Notes: generated by a model from the sequence alone, not told the origin. Counted from the whole stretch's first letter, positions 7,708 through 63,329 are shown. The stretch is DNA of 63,329 bases, filler included, from Aduncisulcus paluster (GCA_024181965.1; 6 parts of 6 records of this genome joined end to end with filler, not necessarily neighbours in it); one strand, 5' to 3'. Program-made: numbers and translations.

Positions 7708-7807
7708 NNNNNNNNNNNNNNNNNNNNNNNNNNNNNNNNNNNNNNNNNNNNTTAATTAATTAANNNNNNNNNNNNNNNNNNNNNNNNNNNNNNNNNNNNN
7801 NNNNNNN
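7708..7807. other. Artificial contig linker N44-TTAATTAATTAA-N44 (also 16974-17073, 22209-22308, 29999-30098, 53831-53930)
   Basis: Identical 100-nt spacer with stops in all six frames; genes on both sides are truncated and unrelated. Confidence 0.97.
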
Positions 7808-16973: not shown

Positions 16974-17917
16974 NNNNNNNNNNNNNNNNNNNNNNNNNNN
17001 NNNNNNNNNNNNNNNNNTTAATTAATTAANNNNNNNNNNNNNNNNNNNNNNNNNNNNNNNNNNNNNNNNNNNNGAGGAAATTATTGTTGAACGATTATCT
17101 CTTCTTCCGTGGAAATAATCTCATTGTGATATTATCTCCCAATGTTCAATGTCTTCTTGCCTGTCTTATCAAAATATACTTTTTATTAATTAGTTTTTAT
17201 CATCCAATGGACTTCGGAGGAGTTCTTCTTGTTCTTGTGGCTTGCATTCATTCCTCTCTCACGTGTTCTGAAGAAGATGCTTCGTTTGATCGCATACAAA
17301 ACTGTTGTGAAGGATTGTTGGAGTTTATAAAGTGCAACTCAAGTTGTCTACAAATCACAAATGTTTCAACCATATCTCTCGTCCTCTTTACCAGTCATTA
17401 TTGGCTTCTTAACAAGTACTCATTCAATATTATGTTTTTAGAAAAGTAGAGAAAGTTTCTTTGATGAATTACGGAAACCAATTGGAAGGATCCTTTCCTC
17501 ACTATGCACTACCCTTGATGACCTGTTACAACAAGCACATCAACTCCAGAAAAACGAAACTTATGCAGCCTATATGTGGAACGCTTTCAGAGAACATAAA
17601 TGGTCTGAGATGGGCGACCTTTATATTGTGCTGAGTTCTCTATCATTTTATTTTTTCTATTTTCCATTGATTTTGACTCAATACATGCAATTTATCCCCA
17701 TTTTCTACGACATTTCTTCGTTTTCTATGGGTTTTGAAAAGTGGAATTCTAAAAATAGAATTTCTAAAAATAGAAATGTAAAAAATATTTTTGTTCCTTT
17801 CGCGTCATACGTGTCATTTATATTGGATTTTCTTCCCAGAAGTTGTGATTTATGGTAGTTTTGAATATTCTGAAATTGTGTTGAATAGTTTGATTGTCTA
17901 TAGTTTCGGCTCCAATT

Positions 17918-22208: not shown

Positions 22209-22308
22209 NNNNNNNNNNNNNNNNNNNNNNNNNNNNNNNNNNNNNNNNNNNNTTAATTAATTAANNNNNNNNNNNNNNNNNNNNNNNNNNNNNNNNNNNN
22301 NNNNNNNN

Positions 22309-22932
22309 ACTCAGATCCAACGTCGTCAGCGCGGGGAGGGCTGACCCATCGGACAGGGCAAGACTCGAAAAGAACCCGGGGAACGTGACGTTCGTGCGCC
22401 CAGAGATGGAAAGCGTGGTCAGGGACGATGGGAACATGCCTTGCACAGTCACATCATAGTGATTGTCAGAGTCGAACAGAGGACTCAGGGACGACAGCTG
22501 AGTCGCCCAGTAGTCGCCAGAAGAAACGGCTCCAACAGTCAAGTACAATGCACGCAGAGACGTCAGACGCGAGAAATCAGTGTTCGGCGCAATGTCAATG
22601 TTATTCAGCGTAAGCGTCTCCAGGCTCGTGGGAAGATCATCGATGTCACTGGTGCTCAGTTGTTTGGACACAGAGTCCGTGTTGCTCACATACAGCGTCG
22701 TAAGGTTCGTCGCAGCACTCAGGCCTGCAAAGGAGTCAACAAAGTACGTGTTCAACGAGGTCAGTTGTTGAAAATCACCTGGGGTTAAGTCATCACAATG
22801 GGCTGCATGATCAAGGGTAATGCAGATGTCATTGCGAAGGTTGGCATCAACAACGTCATCATTTGTGACTAATGATGCACAAAATGGCATGACAAAAGCA
22901 ATTACAAGCAGAAAAAATAGAATTTGCTGCAT
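22309..22932 (-). CDS. Secreted internalin-like LRR protein, 3' partial; paralog of the 53.9-62.8 kb gene
   Basis: Signal peptide MQQILFFLLVIAFVMPFCAS; DANLRNDIC..CDDLT..VDSFAGLSAATNLTTL..LPTSLETLTL aligns with DSNLRSAVC..CDDLT..VDSFEGLQSAVNLTSL..LPLSLVELSL near 55400-55690. Confidence 0.8.
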
Positions 22933-29998: not shown

Positions 29999-30098
29999 NN
30001 NNNNNNNNNNNNNNNNNNNNNNNNNNNNNNNNNNNNNNNNNNTTAATTAATTAANNNNNNNNNNNNNNNNNNNNNNNNNNNNNNNNNNNNNNNNNNNN

Positions 30099-53830: not shown

Positions 53831-53930
53831 NNNNNNNNNNNNNNNNNNNNNNNNNNNNNNNNNNNNNNNNNNNNTTAATTAATTAANNNNNNNNNNNNNN
53901 NNNNNNNNNNNNNNNNNNNNNNNNNNNNNN

Positions 53931-56900
53931 ATGGAAGAGAAACTCACAAGAACGGATGGGTCAAACAATGAAGTCGTTTCTGCAACATCATCATACAACG
54001 ACACACCATTCATTATCAGCTCCGTCAACGAAACATTGGTAGAGTCGGCAGCAACAAGAAGAGCACTAACATCAATAATGGATGTTTCGGCGAGATTGAG
54101 AGAGCTCAAGGATGTGTACGTATCAGCACACTCGGAAGTGTCGGGAAGAGCAGACACAGAAGTGACAGAAGAGAGGGTCAGAGTGGAGAGTGAGTGAAGG
54201 GAGCAGATGAACGACAGATCAGAAAAGCCTTCAATGTCATTCCCACCAGCATCCTCAGGAGCACCATACATGTTATGGGCAAGGGAAAGGGACTCAAGAC
54301 TATACAGAGAACCCAATGGATCAGCACTCACAAAGTTGTGATATGGCAACGAAATGGATGTAAGAGAGCGAATATGTTCAATTCCATCAAGCAGGGAGAA
54401 TCTATCAGAGTTGGAGAGAGCAAAACCATCGTTGGACAAAGTGGAAGTGGAAATGGTCCGCAACGAAGCAACACTGAATATTTGATCTGTGGCATCACAA
54501 TGTAAGTCAGATCCTTCAAATAGACCATAGATAACATCGTGCAAGTTCTCATCAACGATCACTTGTTGACACTCTCCTGTTGTGAAAGTATCATCACCAA
54601 TCACTTCATCACCAAGATATCTACACTCATAACCATACTCACATCCTCCAGAACAGTTCGTGGTTGGGGATGTTGTTTGCATGCATGTAAAGTCCTTAGC
54701 AGATGTGTATGACGTGTATGAATCACTGGCACATACAACATACCATGAACCAGAGCCAGGTTTTGTTTCACTGCAGACCTTGTTGGAAGCGAGTGGAGTA
54801 GATCCAAGGTCACCAGAGGAACATATACAGTCTTGACCTGTCACATTCACATCTGCAGTAGAAAGAGAAAACTTAGATGCAAGGAAAATTTCAATCTCAG
54901 AATCACCATTATCACCACCACAGATATGATTATATGACAAGTCAATGCTACTCCAAGAACCACTGCTGGACAAAGCATACAATGGGGAAGGATCGGAGAT
55001 ATTATTGTTGTTCAGAGATAGTTCAGTCAGATTGGGCATGCTAGCAACAAGATGGAACAACAGAGAGATTGAAGTGTTGTTGGCACTGAAAGAAGTGAGA
55101 GATGATGGCGATGGGAAAAGATCAGACTCAGTGATATCGAATGATGGATTGTCATTCAAAGAGAGTGTTGTAAGATTTGCAAATGTCGAAAAATCTGTAT
55201 TTGCTGGAATATTGCACCCATTTGCATAAATGATGGAAACAGTTGTTGGAATGGATGCGAAAGAGGATAATGCAGTGTAACTAACATCAAGAGATGTGAA
55301 ATAAGAAGATGATGGGAGATATGTAGAATCTGGAACGTCATAATATGGATTATTTTTAACAGAAAGTGCTGTAAGATACCCAAAGATATTGAACTCACAG
55401 TTAGAATCAAGATAGACAGCCTCAAGAGACAACTCAACGAGGGAGAGAGGAAGGTATCCAAGATCAGTATTCCCAATGGACACAGAACTAGACGAAGTGC
55501 CAGAGATAGACAAAGATGTGAGGTTCACAGCAGATTGAAGACCTTCAAAGGAGTCCACAATGGAAACACTAACAGAAGTCACGGTTGCCATGTCTGAAAG
55601 AGTCAGATCATCACAGGAGGAATCGTGAGCACTTGGATTGACAACAGACAAACACACGGCACTTCGAAGGTTGGAATCGGGAATGTCAACATATTCACAG
55701 GAATCTCCATGGAAGCCAAATGAACACCCACATGAAACAACCGATGAGTTGATATCAAGAATTGGAACAAAGATGTCTTTCATCTCACACACTTGGCAAC
55801 GGATGGAATTTTCAGAGGCAACGGCCTTCACACAAGTATTTGTTTCTTTGTCCAAGTAATACCCATGCCAGCACTCAACTTGGTAATATCCATCAGAACG
55901 TTGACGACAAGTCTTATGGGCAGAAAAGGAGACATCCGCTCCTTCAGAACATCGACACCTCGATTGATTAGACACTGAGAGAGAAGTAAGATTTGTAAAA
56001 TATGATAGTAGATTTGTGGTTACAGAATCAATATCACAGATGGAGTTGCCACTGATGTCAAGAGTTGTGAGAACAGTATCAGTATCATCAGGGAACATGG
56101 ATGATGTGATGAGAACAGACACATCAGAGATGGAGTTGTTTGAGAGATCTAGGGATATCAGTTTGAACTTGTCTGTGCCAGGATCTCCAGAAGCAATGGG
56201 AGTCAAGTCAAGGACATCACTGATAGCACTCAATCCACATCCACTCGCAGATAATATCCTCAGACCAGAATCAATGGTTCCAGACGTCACAGCCTTGGCC
56301 AGGATCTGAACAACCAACTTATCATACTCAGCGTTGGAATTACTATCTCCACTCAAGTCATACCCATCAAGGGTCAGAGAGGTCAGTGAAGTGGCATACT
56401 CAAGACCTTGCAGGGTCGTGATGGAATTCACAGAACTTAAGGAAGCTGCAGAAGCTATGGCTGGAAGTGACAATGACTCATTACTATTAGCATCCAATGG
56501 ACATGTCAAAATACTCCTCATGGTGGCAACACTGATTATTCCAGAGTCAAGATCATTAGTTCCTCCAGGTAAACAATTAGCAACCAAGTACTGACGAATA
56601 TAATCGTCATGAACAGTGTAACATTTACCATCAGAAGACTTGGCAATGAAAGCACATTCTTTGACTGCAGGATCAGCAACACTGTTATACACCTCATTCA
56701 GAACTATTGAAGGACATTGCGTTGGATATGTTTCTGAGTCACATACATAATCATCCACATTGTTCAAAGCACAACTATTTGGAATAAAGAGTTTGAGCTT
56801 GTTTGAGGCTGAGTAATGAATTGGAAAGACAGTCGTTATAAATGTCCAATAATCGGTATCATCTTCTGATCTACAGAGAGGTATAAAGTCAAACTTACTC

Positions 56901-59900
56901 GCAATACCCATATAATACAATCCAACATTCCTAAATGAGACAGATATATCATAGATTTGTTCATTCCCATAAATATACAATCCATAGAATCTGTTCAATG
57001 TAAACAAGGAATTGAAATCATAAATATTGACATTATAGGCAGTTGAATACTGATAAAAATATAAGATTGGAAGTTGTTCAAGGAAAGGAATAGGATAAAC
57101 TGATGTTACATCCGTATTGTCTCCACGGAAATTAGAAATGTTTATCAAATACTGAGCACCTTCAAAGGATGTAATATGGGAACTATATGAGTTAAAAATT
57201 CCACTTATACCAGCCATTTCAAACTCTGTGACATCACACAATGGATCACTATTGCTTATAGCATCACACACTTTACCTCTGAACAACTTATCAGGGATAT
57301 GGACGGAATATAACTGGTCACAATCGTCACCATACCAGGCAGATCGACACCCACATGTGATGGATGAAGCGCCAACCTCAAGAACAGGCATCATATTGGA
57401 ATGTCCTTCACACACTTGACAACGGATAATGTCTGAGTAATCAGTGGCTTCAACACACTCTCTAGTTGATTTGTCGAGATAGTACCCATTCCAGCACTCA
57501 ACGGCCCAGCGATCGGGATACACTTCACGACACACTTGGTGAGCTGCAGAAGACACAGATGCAGAACAATGGCATGTTTGGTCAGAATATGTCAAGGTTG
57601 ATAGGGTTGGGAATTCGGTTTGCAATTGACTCACAATTCCTTCAATGTCACAGATATTATTATCACTGATGTCAAGAGTTGTGAGAACAGCATCAGTATC
57701 ATCAGGGAACATGGAAGATGTGATGAGAACAGATACATCAGAGATGGAGTTGTTTGAGAGATCTAGAGATATCAGTTTGAACTTGTCTGTGGTTGGATCT
57801 CCAGAAGCAATGGGAGTCAAGTCAAGCACATCACCAATGTTACTCAGACCACACTCGCTCGCAGATAAGGATGTGAGACCAAAAACAATAGATTCATTGA
57901 TATCATTTAAATATGAAACACTTTTAGCCAAGATCTGAACAACAATTTGGTCATAAGCAGAAACATCATTATCACCACTCAGATCATACCCATCAAGGGT
58001 CAATGATGTCAAACCAACAGCATTACCATCTGTATCGAGACCTTGAGTATATTCGAGACCCTGTAAGGTTGTGATAACAGATATATCGACATACACATCA
58101 GTAAGGGTTAAGGAAGTACATGTCATATCACTTCTCAGACTGGCAACACTGAGCACACCATTCGACTCAGCAGTCACACTACAGTTCGAAGTCAGATATG
58201 AACGGATCATGTTATCATGAACAGTGTAACACTCACCACTAGAACCAATTTTTGCAATAGAGGAACATTCTTTTTGGACGAGGATGTTATTGTACACTTC
58301 ATTTCGGACAATTGATGGGCAATTTGAATTATTTGAACAATAATATTCAGATGTATCATTGATGGGACAGTCATTTGGAACAACATAAGTTTCAGTATCA
58401 GAATCTGTAATACGGCCAAAAACAGAAGTAATAAATCCGATAAATGTCGAATCATTTTCAGATCGACAATATGCAGTGTATGATAATAAAGATGTATCAG
58501 CGAGTGAAAGTTCTGATAAGGCTATATTTCTATAAAACATGGAAATGTCAAAGAGTAAATATGCCCCTCTGATAGCCAATGAGGATAATCTATGCATATT
58601 CGGGGTTGGATACTCATAAACAGCAAAATCATGAAGAGAAGGGTAATTATTCAGATATAAGAGAGATGTTAGTTGAGGCATGAGAGAGAATTCAAGGGCA
58701 GAAACAGGGGAAATGTTAAACAAAGCAACATCACTAACATTGATCATATAGTGAAGACCTTCAGGAGTTGTGACTGGAGAAAATCCATCAGAGTTAGACA
58801 CTGAACCAGAATATCCAGCTGCTTCAAATTCAGAGAAATCACATAAAGTCAATTCAAACCCAAGATAATAGCACATACCTTTCCTCAACCACGGAGAAGG
58901 AACATGAACTTGATACAAACTCTCACAATCATCGCCATACCAAGCAGAACGACATCCACATGTGATAGCAGAAGCACCCGATTCAAGAATAGGTCTTCTA
59001 TGTGGATCACGTTCGCATACTTGACAACGAATGATATCCCCAGAATTAGTCGCTTTCACGCAAATGTCATTGTCGATATCGTAATAGTACCCATTCCAAC
59101 ACTCCACATCCCAACGACCAGGATATACTTCACGACAAACTTGATGATCTTCTGAAGAGATGGGCATTGTACAATTACAAGTCTGATTATCGTAGGTTAG
59201 TGAGAATATTGTGAAATTATCTTGTAACTGACTCACCATCCCATCAATATCACAGATGAAGTTGCCACTGATGTCAAGAGTTGTGAGAACATCTTCGGGG
59301 AACATGGAAGATGTGATGAGAACAGACACATCAGAGATGGAGTTGTTTGAGAGATCTAGGGATATCAGTTTGAACTTGTCTGTGCCAGGATCTCCAGAAG
59401 CAATGGGAGTCAAGTCAAGGACATCACTGATAGCACTCAATCCACATCCACTCGCAGATAATATCCTCAGACCAGAATCAATGGTTCCAGACGTCACAGC
59501 CTTGGCCAGGATCTGAACAACCAACTTATCATACTCAGCGTTGGAATTACTATCTCCACTCAAGTCATACCCATCAAGGGTCAGAGAGGTCAATGAAGTG
59601 GCATACTCAAGACCTTGCAGGGTCGTGATGGAATTCACAGAACTTAAGGAAGCTGCAGAAGCTATGTCTGGAAGTGACAATGACTCATTACTATTAGTAT
59701 CCAATGGACATGACAAAACACTCCTCATGGTGGCAACACTGATGACACCATTTGATTCAACATTACTACTGGAAAGACAATGATCCTTCAGATATTGTCG
59801 AATTGAATCATCATGAACAGTGTAACACTCACCACTGGTCCCTTCCTTCGCAATGAATGCACATTGTTTCTCGTTCACATCATCCACACTGTTATACACC

Positions 59901-62751
59901 TCATTCAGAACTATTGAAGGGCATTGCGTTGGATATGTTTCTGAGTCACATACATAATCATCCACATTGTTCAAAGCACAACTATTGGGAATATAGTATG
60001 TATCCTTGTATGTGCCTGAGGAATGAATTGGAAAAACAGTCGTTATAAATGTCCAATAATCGGTATCATCTTCTGATCTACAGAGAGGGATGAAGGCAGA
60101 ATAATCTGTATACGCAATAGATATATAATCCAATCCAGCATTCCTAAATGAGACAGATATATCATAGATTTGTTCATCCCCATAAATAGCCAATCTATAC
60201 AATCTATTCAATGTAAACAAGGAATTGAGATCATAAATATTGCCATTAAAGGTAGTTGAAGTCTGATGAAAAAATAAGTATGATAATTGTCCAAGGAAAG
60301 AAATAGGATAAACTGATGTTACATCTGTATTTGGTCCAGAGAAAGAAGTAAGATTTATCAAATACTGAGCACCTTCAAAGGACGTAATATGGGAACCATA
60401 TGAATAAAAATACCCATTTATACCAGCCATTTCAAACTCTGACACATCACACAATGGATCGATTGTAATATCATATCCAGCGGCATCACACACTTTACCT
60501 CTGAACAACTCATCTGGAATATATACTTGATACAATTCATCACAATCATCACCATACCAGGCAGATCGACACCCACATGTGATGGATGAAGCGCCAACCT
60601 CAAGAACAGGCATCATATTGGAATGTCCTTCACACACTTGACAACGGATAATGTCTGAGGAATCAGTGGCTTCAACACACTCTCTAGTTGATTTGTCGAG
60701 ATAATACCCATGCCAGCACTCGACAGCCCAACGATCGGGATACACTTCACGACACACTTGGTGAGCTGCAGAAGACACAGATGCAGAACAATGGCATGTT
60801 TGGTCAGAATATGTCAAGGTTGATAGGGTTGGGAATTTGGTTTGCAATTGACTCACAATTCCTTCAATATCACAGATGGAGTTGCCACTGATCAGCACTC
60901 GACAGCCCAACGATCGGGATACACTTCACGACACACTTGGTGAGCTGCAGAAGACACAGATGCAGAACAATGGCATGTTTGGTCAGAATATGTCAAGGTT
61001 GATAGGGTTGGGAATTTGGTTTGCAATTGACTCACAATTCCTTCAATATCACAGATGGAGTTGCCACTGATGTCAAGAGTTGTGAGAACAGCATCAGTAT
61101 CATCAGGGAACATGGAAGATGTGATGAGAACTGAAACATCAGAGATGGAGTTGTTTGAGAGATCTAGGGATGTCAGTTTGAACTTGTCTGTGGTTGAGTC
61201 TCCAGAAGCAATGGGAGTCAAGTCAAGCACATCACCAATGTTACTCAGACCACACTCACTCGCAGATAAGGATGCAAGACCCGAATTAACCGAACCATAA
61301 TCATTAGAAATTGTCACAGCCTTTGCCAGGATCTGAACAACCAACTTATCATACTCAGCGTTGGAATTACTATCTCCACTCAAGTCATACTCATCAAGGG
61401 TCAGAGAGGTCAATGAAGTGGCATACTCAAGACCTTGAAGTGTTGTGAGGGCATTTACAGAGGCTAAGGATGACGCAGTAGCAATATCTTGCAAAGATAA
61501 TGATGAAGAAGGACATGACAAAACACTTCTCATGGTGGCAACACTGATTATTCCAGAGTCTAGATCATCAGAGCCATTTGGCAAACATTCATTTATCAGA
61601 TACTCCCTCACATTATCATCATGGACTGTATAACATTTCAAGTCTCCATCGATCACAGACCCACTTGTTTTAGCAATGAAAGAACACTCCTTATAATCAG
61701 CTTCATCAACACTATTATACACTTCATTAAGAACAATAGATGGACATTTGTCTGGGTATGTATCTTGACTACAGAAGTAATCATCAGTAATGTTAAGTGG
61801 ACAACTATTAGAGGTGTGAAATTGGGCAATATTATCGGTATCTTGATCATGAGTTGGGAAAACAGTGGTAAGGAAAGATATAAAATCTTCATTTGATTCA
61901 GATCGACATAATGGAATCATCTCATTCTCATAGTATCCGATTATCAAGGATCTCAATGCAACGCTCTTGAAGGAAAGAGAAATATCATAAACTTGATCGT
62001 TACCATAAAGACGGAGAGTAAAAAGCCTATTCAAAGGATACAGGGAGTTAAAATCAGTTAATTTCATCGAATAATTTGGACCCCACAAAACAATAGTCAA
62101 ATAACAGAGCTGTGTAAGTTCTGAAAGAACTTGGACCGATGTGATATCTGTATTGTTGACATAATAGGAATAAACATTGATCAAATTTTGAGCAGCTTCT
62201 AACGTGGTGGTATGTGCATTTCCACAGTTAAATTGTTCATTAATACCAGCCATCTCAAACTCAGACACATCACACAATGGATCGACTGTAATATCATATC
62301 CAGCAGCATCACACACTTTACCTCTGAACAATTTATCAGGGATATGCACGGAATACAACTGGTCACAATCATCACCATACCAGACAGATCGACAGCCCAG
62401 AGAAAGGGATGAATCTCCATCAGCAAGGATGCACATGTGATACTCATCATTAATGGTTGGACATTGGTATGTCGTATCTTCAATGTCACAAGAATAAGTG
62501 GCCTCATTGTAATAATACCCATCCTCACACTCGGCAGTATAACGACCAGGATATACCTCATTGCAGACGAAATGATCGTCCTCGGAGAGATACATGGAAC
62601 ATTCTTCAGAGAACTCTGCGCTAAGGACAGATTGAAAGGAAGAACTCAGAAAAATCAAGAAGATAAGGATATGAAGAGTAGAAATGGAAGAAGAATTAGG
62701 ACAAGAGGATTGAGCTGATCTAAATTCATAGTTTAATGATTGAGTTGTCAT
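53931..62751 (-). CDS. Giant secreted or surface LRR + EGF-like modular protein (>2800 aa, 3' partial)
   Basis: Signal-like HILIFLIFLSSSFQSVLSA. Four ~530-aa modules (EGF-like CxCxxxWYGDDC, IPDxxFRxxVC cap, 4-5 LRRs, Cys-rich spacer, LQGLEYATSLTSLTL..LDLSNNSISDVSVL..LDISGNSIC), then further LRR/Cys blocks. The two ORFs join on collapsing the 179-bp duplication. Confidence 0.88.
60714..61071. repeat. Exact 179-bp tandem duplication that frameshifts the LRR gene
   Basis: 60714-60892 equals 60893-61071 (cagcactcgacagccc...gttgccactgat); no N gap between copies. Confidence 0.92.
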
Positions 62752-63286
62752 TGATGAATAAATATTTCTGATAACAGTCCGAAACAGCGATTCAGAAAAA
62801 AGAAAATAACAAATGAGGAAATCTCGGTTGCATGACAATAATAAGGGTAAAAATGGAAATATCAGATATGATATGATGAAATAACAAAACAAAGTCAGGA
62901 TAATACATTGTGGGCCATTCAATACACGGATATGAAAATGGCCTCTATGAAATAGGGGTTTAGACAAATTTGCTTTCATAATACTTGAATATAATCGTTG
63001 TAAAAGATGAGAATTTGGAAAATAAGTTGAATTATTTTCTTGGATCGTCACCGAAAGCTGTTTTTTTTTGTCATCGATGTACTAACACTTTTAATTATTA
63101 TTCCAATTTGAAAATGAATCCTAATAAGTTAATTTTTTACTTTTTTTTTGGTGGAACATTTTAGGAAGTGCAGATAAGTCTGTCAGTGGCTACCACTGAA
63201 TGGCAAAGGTACTAAAAGATATTATTAATAAATTAACCCGGGAAACTATTTACAGTTCATAGTTATTGGACTTTAAGGGGAAACTA

Positions 63287-63329
63287 TCATAATATGTCAA
63301 GAGTTGTGAGAACAGCATCAGTATCATCA
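63287..63329 (-). pseudogene. 3' end of an upstream, truncated copy of the LRR module
   Basis: atgtcaagagttgtgagaacagcatcagtatcatca is identical to ~61070-61105 and ~57669-57704 (DDTDAVLTTLDI) but is followed by TTA TGA TAG. Confidence 0.65.

Follow-up and report, generated by a model that had tools for sequence, protein, structure and literature searches.

Examination of a 63,329-nucleotide stretch of DNA from the free-living fornicate Aduncisulcus paluster (GCA_024181965.1; hereinafter, the window) revealed, on the minus strand of its final contig (53931-63329, 9.4 kb), a gene that encodes a protein with four tandem leucine-rich repeat (LRR) modules, here denoted M1 to M4. Each module contains two LRR blocks and, in the first of these (LRR1), the amino acid replacements between M2 and M4 are concentrated at the x positions of the predicted LxxLxLxx strands, where nonsynonymous changes are in significant excess over the synonymous background. 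In our estimation, it is fairly probable that the gene belongs to a germline-encoded, lineage-specific family of multi-headed, receptor-like LRR proteins in which gene conversion keeps the scaffold uniform and one face of the LRR solenoid is subject to diversifying selection.

Modules, strand positions and codon changes

The likely start of the gene is the ATG at 62751, which is followed by a hydrophobic, signal-peptide-like stretch that is found also at the N-termini of paralogs; then come M1 to M4 in tandem and a different, LRR- and Cys-rich C-terminal part. On the minus strand, the first open reading frame (ORF) spans 719 codons (60892-63051), and a frame shift separates it from a second one of 2,343 codons (53879-60910); the latter reaches into the linker between contigs, and the C-terminus of the gene lies off the contig end at 53931. 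The features of the gene are as follows.

53931 to 62751, minus strand: the gene as assembled, delimited from ORFs, translations, the ATG position and the contig boundary
61066 to 62613, minus strand: M1, 516 aa, with LRR1 at 61927-62262; it lacks the inter-module linker because it follows the predicted signal peptide
59267 to 60886, minus strand: M2 (module 2 of a preliminary description of this DNA), 540 aa; mean pLDDT (predicted local distance difference test score) of the AlphaFold2 (AF2) model 85.7
57665 to 59266, minus strand: M3, 534 aa, with LRR1 at 58490-58831; the most divergent module, with low depth in run X1
56051 to 57664, minus strand: M4 (module 4 of the preliminary description), 538 aa
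60104 to 60439, minus strand: variable LRR1 of M2
60329-60352, 60263-60286, 60179-60202 and 60110-60133: the LxxLxLxx strands of the M2 LRR1, with the N-cap strand at 60392-60418
56891 to 57226, minus strand: variable LRR1 of M4
59996 to 60022, minus strand: second hypervariable patch of M2, in the C-cap loop (M2 residues 289-297); the M4 counterpart lies within 56780-56818
59267 to 59632, minus strand: constant LRR2 of M2, with the M4 counterpart at 56051-56425; 7 nt differ over 149 codons
60539 to 60796, minus strand: Cys-rich, EGF-like spacer of M2, with the M4 copy at 57317-57574; labelled from the motif CxCxxxWYGDDC
60714 to 61071: exact 179-bp tandem duplication at the M1/M2 junction
54431 to 56050, minus strand: fifth unit, of which the linker and the Cys-rich start match those of the modules and are followed by a longer, regular LRR domain
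59267-59632, 56051-56425, 61066-61452 and 57665-58078: LRR2 and linker regions that are near-identical in DNA

Beyond the fifth unit, further Cys-rich and LRR sequence extends up to the contig end. The general size of the modules is about 535-540 aa (range 516-540 aa), and each is a doublet of a Cys-rich spacer, a helical cap and an LRR solenoid. The first half of a module comprises the EGF-like Cys-rich spacer, the helical cap 'IPDxxFRxxVC...CDVSEFEMA' and LRR1, after which come the C-cap 'CRSEDDTDYWTFITTVFP', which contains Cys, and another Cys-rich piece; the second half comprises the cap 'YTVHDDxIRxYL' and then LRR2, 'TTLQGLEY...LDLSNNSISDVSVL...TTLDIS'. The label EGF-like denotes a motif, and the Pfam scan of the gene gave no EGF match above the threshold; the only Pfam matches of the window protein are LRR_4, LRR_1 and LRR_6.

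In the AF2 model of M2, which was built from 24 aligned sequences, helices at residues 126-135 and 150-155 precede strands that are spaced every 22-28 residues (158-161, 179-183, 203-205, 231-233 and 254-256) and coincide with the LxxLxL positions; past the last strand, there are helices at 274-284 and 291-298 and then Cys-rich hairpins. The best matches of this model among the structures of the Protein Data Bank (PDB), as detected with Foldseek, are internalins A, B, H, F and C, with E-values down to 8e-8; the LRR of InlB aligns with the model over approximately 150-190 columns at 19-25% identity and a root mean square deviation of approximately 4-6 Å.

The preliminary description reported that M2 and M4 share a scaffold block with about 6 differences and that their 107-codon LRR blocks differ by roughly 28 replacements against about 6 silent changes, as counted by hand. 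Both counts stand: the scaffold blocks 59298-59742 and 56091-56536 show 6 mismatches over 445 bp and 1 gap column, the latter because the lengths are 445 and 446 nt, and the LRR blocks 60113-60433 and 56900-57220 differ at 45 nucleotides, with exactly 28 replacements and 6 silent changes. The frequent multi-base codon swaps and the swaps to or from Tyr are also real, with 9 of the 28 replacements involving Tyr and 9 changing at least two bases, and the stretches that had been called invariant (HITSFEGAQYLIN, TDVTSVYPI and EQIYDISVSFRN) are identical in the alignment of M2 and M4. The characterization of the modules as near-identical holds for the scaffold but not for the modules overall, M2 and M4 forming a mosaic in which two stretches, M2 residues 116-154 (synonymous divergence, dS, of 0.79) and 334-392 (dS 0.95), are strongly divergent; in both, M4 resembles M1 and M2 resembles M3.

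The site class that we compared with the rest of the block consists of positions x2, x3, x5, x7 and x8 of LxxLxLxx, according to the standard LRR rule, with L1 at M2 residues 179, 201, 229 and 252. The four strands contain 20 such positions, 19 of which are comparable between M2 and M4. Replacements concentrate there, as had been proposed: 12 of the 19 x codons are replaced, compared to 16 of the 88 other codons (Fisher P=1.8e-4).

M2 and M4 are the only pair of modules that is close enough for codon counts, which were made by the Nei-Gojobori method. Over the 107-codon block, the nonsynonymous divergence (dN) is 0.166 and dS is 0.118, with a ratio (omega) of 1.40 (Fisher P=0.31), and a slightly shifted LRR block gives an omega of 1.57 (Fisher P=0.21), so that an omega above 1 over the whole block could not be upheld (1.4-1.6, with a bootstrap interval of 0.7-4.1 and Fisher P of 0.2-0.3). 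In the flanking Cys-rich spacer, dN is 0.023 and dS is 0.129, for an omega of 0.18, and LRR2 has an omega of 0.44. The dS values of the spacer and of LRR1 are effectively equal and, therefore, the two regions are of one age, with dN about 8-fold higher in LRR1. At the x sites, 18.5 nonsynonymous differences fall on 45 nonsynonymous sites (pN 0.41, dN 0.60), along with 0.5 synonymous changes. Compared with the synonymous background in the co-aged, young parts of the modules (pS 0.118), this excess is significant (Poisson P=1.3e-5, Fisher P=2e-5); it also persists when the synonymous sites of the LRR block itself serve as the reference (P=9e-5 to 5e-4) and when each codon is counted as a single event, a guard against multi-base imports (P=6e-4). 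For the remaining 88 codons of the block, dN is 0.098, dS is 0.135 and omega is about 0.7. Thus, at the strand positions, to which the preliminary description had tied its case for diversification, omega is about 4.6 in this one pair.

The mosaicism extends to all four modules. The nearest neighbor among M1-M4 shifts segment by segment, with some stretches 100% identical between M1 and M2/M4 and others 98% identical between M1 and M3, and LRR2 and the inter-module linker are nearly the same in DNA in M1-M4, with 93-100% nucleotide identity over the last 45 codons. The near-identity of LRR2 and the linker points to concerted evolution or, perhaps, to a conserved partner for LRR2, and the mosaic as a whole is the kind of pattern that is left by conversion or recombination among modules or, alternatively, by chimeric assembly.

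Relatives and receptor architecture

A search for homologs among 1.84 billion representatives gave 106 matches in total, with E-values of 1e-10 or lower in 70 cases and of 1e-30 or lower in 51; the source name was obtained for 27 of the top 70, and all 27 come from A. paluster. The six weaker matches that were examined are metagenomic LRR proteins with similarity over the LRR1 stretch only, and a search for shorter homologs added one fragment of 88 aa. The ESM Atlas yielded only generic bacterial LRR clusters, with scores of 0.83-0.86, which is under the counted level. Lateral transfer of the LRR from bacteria, suggested only by such weak metagenomic and bacterial look-alikes, was considered and dropped.

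From 134 proteins, we aligned 47 full-length LRR1 blocks, contained in 39 proteins, with those of M1-M4. Ten LRR1 blocks that are at least 73% identical to M2, namely, M2 itself, M4 and 8 blocks from 6 database proteins, make up a close clade, in which at least four residue types occur at 11 of the 19 x sites as against 4 of the 88 other sites of the block (P=2.4e-7). The variation is concentrated at the x positions of the strands, and eight additional modules, located on other contigs, show it as well. Within the same ten modules, Tyr accounts for 24% of the residues at hypervariable sites vs 10% elsewhere; additional hypervariable sites are found in the N-cap strand (159 and 164), past the last strand (261-264) and in the C-cap loop 289-297, where there are also indels. 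Across the 30 modules that cover both LRRs, the x-site entropy is 2.87 bits in LRR1 vs 1.25 bits in LRR2 (P=3e-6) and, within M1-M4, an x site has on average 2.95 residue types in LRR1 and 1.32 in LRR2. The x sites of LRR2 are conserved and, therefore, the variability is not a generic property of LRR x positions. The suggestion that several specificities are strung on one chain finds support in the four different LRR1 faces that the single polypeptide carries as assembled.

Segments are shared among the paralogs in a reticulate manner. Strands S1-S4 of M4 are identical to those of P0123a, but S5 and loop B are different, and P0012 is M2-like in S1, S3 and S4, its S2 and S5 having features like those of M4.

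Several relatives extend past the module into regions that are expected of receptors. In P0032, P0035 and P0068, a module end is followed by a Cys-rich spacer, then by a hydrophobic, predicted transmembrane (TM) helix and lastly by a protein kinase (Pfam Pkinase, E-values of 4e-15, 3e-14 and 2e-14, respectively), with HRD and DLG motifs discernible by eye, whereas in P0025, P0044, P0033 and P0052, the module leads into EGF repeats and a TM-like helix, with a short tail at the end. The TM helices were located with a simple hydropathy scan rather than a dedicated predictor. The receptor role that had been suggested for the protein fits the existence of relatives with a TM segment and a kinase or with a TM segment and a short tail. 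In the public gene models of P0036 and P0073, pieces of the family are fused to prolyl-tRNA synthetase and actin domains; these fusions are probably merged gene predictions on short contigs.

Some observations concern the surroundings of the gene. About 540 bp upstream of the ATG, at 63295-63329, on the very edge of the window, the minus-strand sequence encodes the end of a further module ('...DDTDAVLTTLDI'), so the genes of the family may be arranged head-to-tail; a 1,916-nt Logan unitig aligns up to 63295 and no further. On another contig, the minus strand at 22312-22857 shows a weak tblastn match to the LRR of the fifth unit (35% over 190 aa, E 9e-15) and probably encodes another LRR protein of the same organism. 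The window as a whole is a chain of separate contigs, joined by N44-TTAATTAATTAA-N44 linkers that carry stops in all six frames; the linkers separate contigs and, therefore, genes on either side of a linker are not genomic neighbors. In the rest of the window, the gene density and the long ORFs fit an intron-poor eukaryote.

7708-7807, 16974-17073, 22209-22308, 29999-30098 and 53831-53930: N44-TTAATTAATTAA-N44 linkers
12424, 31779, 36806, 39540, 45855 and 52433: N20 runs that resemble scaffold gaps

Alternative explanations

The A. paluster genome announcement describes an assembly that was obtained from 150-bp paired reads of approximately 500-bp fragments with MaSuRCA and comprises 25,863 contigs, with an N50 of 4.6 kb and a BUSCO value of 40%; the relatives with a source name belong to this draft, and most of the relatives described above are 'partial' proteins on contigs of 1.4-5.9 kb. 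In such a short-read draft, the order of segments and some haplotypes may be chimeric, which weighs against the explanation that we favor, and in the extreme, the contig would be a chimeric path through near-identical paralogs, so that the M2/M4 comparison mixes different genes. Several observations are in line with this possibility. In run X1, the depth summed over unitigs at least 95% alike amounts to 45,000-176,000 over M2/M4-type sequence, that is, 30-130 times the approximately 1,200-1,400 over the unique parts (M3 and the 5' end), a rough hint, depth not being a copy count, that the M2/M4 type is present in tens of copies or more, far above the ten assembled. The Logan pieces over M2 and M4 are about 100-150 nt long and none spans a module, five joints lead from M2/M4 unitigs to other module positions in run X1, and none of the short unitigs was seen to extend across the 179-bp junction; exact repeats within the contig reach a length of 283 bp. 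Nevertheless, an assembly artefact appears to be a rather unlikely source of the pattern. The variable strands are only 66-90 nt apart, so that 150-nt reads link neighboring strands and read pairs span the 321-nt block; strands S1-S4 of M4 are unchanged in an independent contig, the one with P0123a; and, even if the linkage were wrong, the variants themselves are real, occupying x sites in each of the 10 close modules. The variants and their location on the strands hold regardless of the order of the segments. A related difficulty is the 179-bp duplication, in which 60714-60892 and 60893-61071 match with 0 mismatches and which shifts the frame, dividing the gene between two ORFs, the larger of which lacks a signal peptide. 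By this token, the copy at hand could be a pseudogene, another point against our explanation, and the differences in LRR1 could represent neutral decay. We regard this as quite improbable: some 2,300 further codons remain open, the omega values of 0.18 in the spacer and 0.44 in LRR2 do not indicate uniform decay, and an exact duplication is either very recent or an artefact of the kind seen among the relatives, where 5 of the 134 proteins, mostly of the A. paluster family, carry in-frame duplications that are likewise tandem and exact, 46-139 aa in length, one of these within a kinase domain. Given these cases, which also add to the argument for faulty assembly, the duplication seems somewhat more likely to be an assembly artefact than a real lesion.

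Should the sequences be taken at face value, the x positions of LRR1 could still be simply unconstrained, with the differences imported by conversion from distant paralogs and no positive selection involved. The divergent, M1- or M3-like stretches at residues 116-154 and 334-392, the reticulate sharing of segments and the non-significant omega of the whole block all speak for this possibility, the last of these also being a direct weakness of the explanation that we favor. Old imported tracts, however, would raise dS, which in the LRR1 block (0.12) is the same as in the flanking young scaffold (0.13); relaxed constraint caps omega at 1, whereas pN at the x sites amounts to 3.5 times what neutrality predicts; and the x sites of LRR2 are conserved within the very same modules. 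Hence, the absence of positive selection appears decidedly unlikely. Further points on the negative side are that the codon test involves one module pair and that the site class was fixed after the alignment had been viewed, even if this class conforms to the usual LRR motif and to the strands of the AF2 model, and that short conversion tracts from other paralogs could introduce several changes as one event, against which counting by codon guards only partly. Moreover, the location of the variable sites on one face is predicted from the strand positions and general knowledge of LRRs; the C-terminus of this gene is off the contig, so that a TM segment and a kinase would be attributed to it from its relatives; and the protein is a putative binding protein or surface receptor as read from its sequence and a model.

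An even more radical possibility is that the variation is partly somatic, with LRR1 cassettes assembled or converted during growth, as in the variable lymphocyte receptors (VLRs) of lampreys and hagfish. The variants are, indeed, cassette-like, their sharing among paralogs is reticulate, and there is a very high number of copies; furthermore, the family resembles VLRs in its short, capped LRR with diversity on the concave sheet and in the C-cap loop, and in the Tyr-rich predicted binding sites; in VLRs, the variable loop of the LRRCT cap adjoins the concave sheet. In VLR systems, however, there is an incomplete germline gene with flanking partial cassettes, whereas the 9.4-kb contig carries four complete, in-frame modules, with neither an incomplete gene nor a cassette array, and the protein is multi-headed; the DNA is of bulk culture, and the contigs come only from that source. 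We consider the somatic version extremely improbable and, in what follows, keep to the germline-encoded, multi-headed family.

Known systems and biological implications

The preliminary description likened the protein to both VLRs and internalins. An internalin-like solenoid with variation at the x sites is retained from this comparison, and VLR-type somatic assembly is not, the modules being complete and in frame; the best Foldseek matches listed include internalins and designed LRR proteins but no VLR. Like InlA, InlB and InlH, the modeled module has an N-terminal helical cap followed by 22-residue LRRs. In the model, however, there is no beta-sandwich, and a Cys-containing helical C-cap takes the place of the Ig-like inter-repeat domain; in addition, the gene is eukaryotic and the LRR is embedded in Cys-rich spacers. 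Membership in the internalin family was rejected, given that the model lacks an Ig-like inter-repeat domain fused to the last LRR. The BspA-like (TpLRR, LRR_5) family was rejected as well: there is no LRR_5 match in the window protein or in the 19 relatives scanned.

Plant receptors of the Cf-9/Hcr9 and Xa21 types have extracellular LRRs with hypervariable, solvent-exposed x residues in the xxLxLxx motif and form tandem families that are shuffled by unequal crossing-over and conversion, with kinase-bearing and kinase-less members side by side. The family described here seems analogous in all three respects, namely, hypervariability of the x residues, reshuffled tandem families and members with and without kinases. 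Unlike the receptor-like kinases (RLK) and receptor-like proteins (RLP) of plants, with their 24-residue repeats, it has a bacterial, internalin-type 22-residue repeat (LRR_4); it also has several capped LRR heads per chain with Cys-rich spacers between them, and belongs to an unrelated lineage, the immune role being known for the plant proteins only. Membership in the plant LRR-RLK/RLP group was rejected, with no 24-residue consensus or LRRNT_2, only LRR_4, LRR_1 and LRR_6 in Pfam, and repeats of 22-28 residues. Slit is a secreted protein with EGF-like repeats and four LRR domains, each with its own caps, on a single chain and is similar in this layout; unlike the present family, however, the Slit domains are conserved ligands of guidance receptors and do not form a hypervariable multigene family.

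The closest protist precedents that we found are the LRR expansions of Tetrahymena and the LRR receptors of brown algae. In Tetrahymena, according to PMC6564038, 90-bp exons with phase-2 introns between them are shuffled. The resemblance lies in a free-living, bacterivorous protist with a very large, young, tandem LRR family that undergoes recombination and combines with kinase and TM segments; the A. paluster modules differ in being intron-less ORF units of about 1.6 kb, with variation at set strand positions, another repeat type and another lineage. The brown-algal LRR-ROCO and NB-ARC proteins (PMC3341825 and PMC11378527) are reportedly exon-shuffled, intracellular GTPase or NB-ARC proteins and, similarly, have rapidly evolving LRRs and are candidates for recognition receptors in organisms other than plants and animals, whereas the proteins of the present family are predicted to be extracellular and multi-headed. 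In the literature on LRR proteins or receptor kinases of Aduncisulcus, Kipferlia and Metamonada, no description of the family was found, the supplementary counts of PMC11437800 being outside this search; that diplomonad paper tabulates counts of LRR and BspA-like proteins in a supplementary table. The A. paluster genome announcement contains no mention of the family.

Under the germline explanation that we favor, the window would encode the ectodomain of a very large protein, either secreted or of the type I membrane class, a member of a gene family that appears to be specific to the A. paluster lineage. LRR1, with its four regular strands and N-cap strand, would form a hypervariable, Tyr-rich concave sheet, complemented by a variable C-cap loop, whereas LRR2 and the spacers would be kept almost identical between modules. 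Tandem duplication along with gene conversion or unequal crossing-over presumably maintains the homogeneous scaffold and shuffles short segments, and diversifying selection would keep the LRR1 faces different. One polypeptide would thereby present several different binding heads, with many more held in the genome, and the heads would bind extracellular ligands; in at least some members of the family, conceivably including the product of this gene, a single TM helix would relay the signal to a protein kinase in the cytoplasm, and others would be kinase-less, receptor-like proteins. At a guess, the ligands would be surface molecules of prey or harmful microbes, and all this diversity would be encoded in the germline.

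More doubtful is the broader proposition that tens to more than 100 germline LRR1 'paratopes', Tyr-rich concave faces with a variable cap loop, displayed several per chain on receptor kinases and receptor-like proteins and constantly shuffled through inter-module conversion, constitute an independently evolved, antibody-like repertoire; if this were the case, a bacterivorous metamonad would use such a repertoire to tell prey, pathogens or kin apart. Hypervariable LRR receptors underlie recognition in plants, jawless vertebrates and many invertebrates, and the ways in which free-living protists discriminate among prey, pathogens and kin are largely unknown ground. With its defined hypervariable sites, constant scaffold, kinase-bearing members and unusual multi-head architecture, the family would offer a concrete, testable candidate for such a recognition system in a free-living relative of Giardia.

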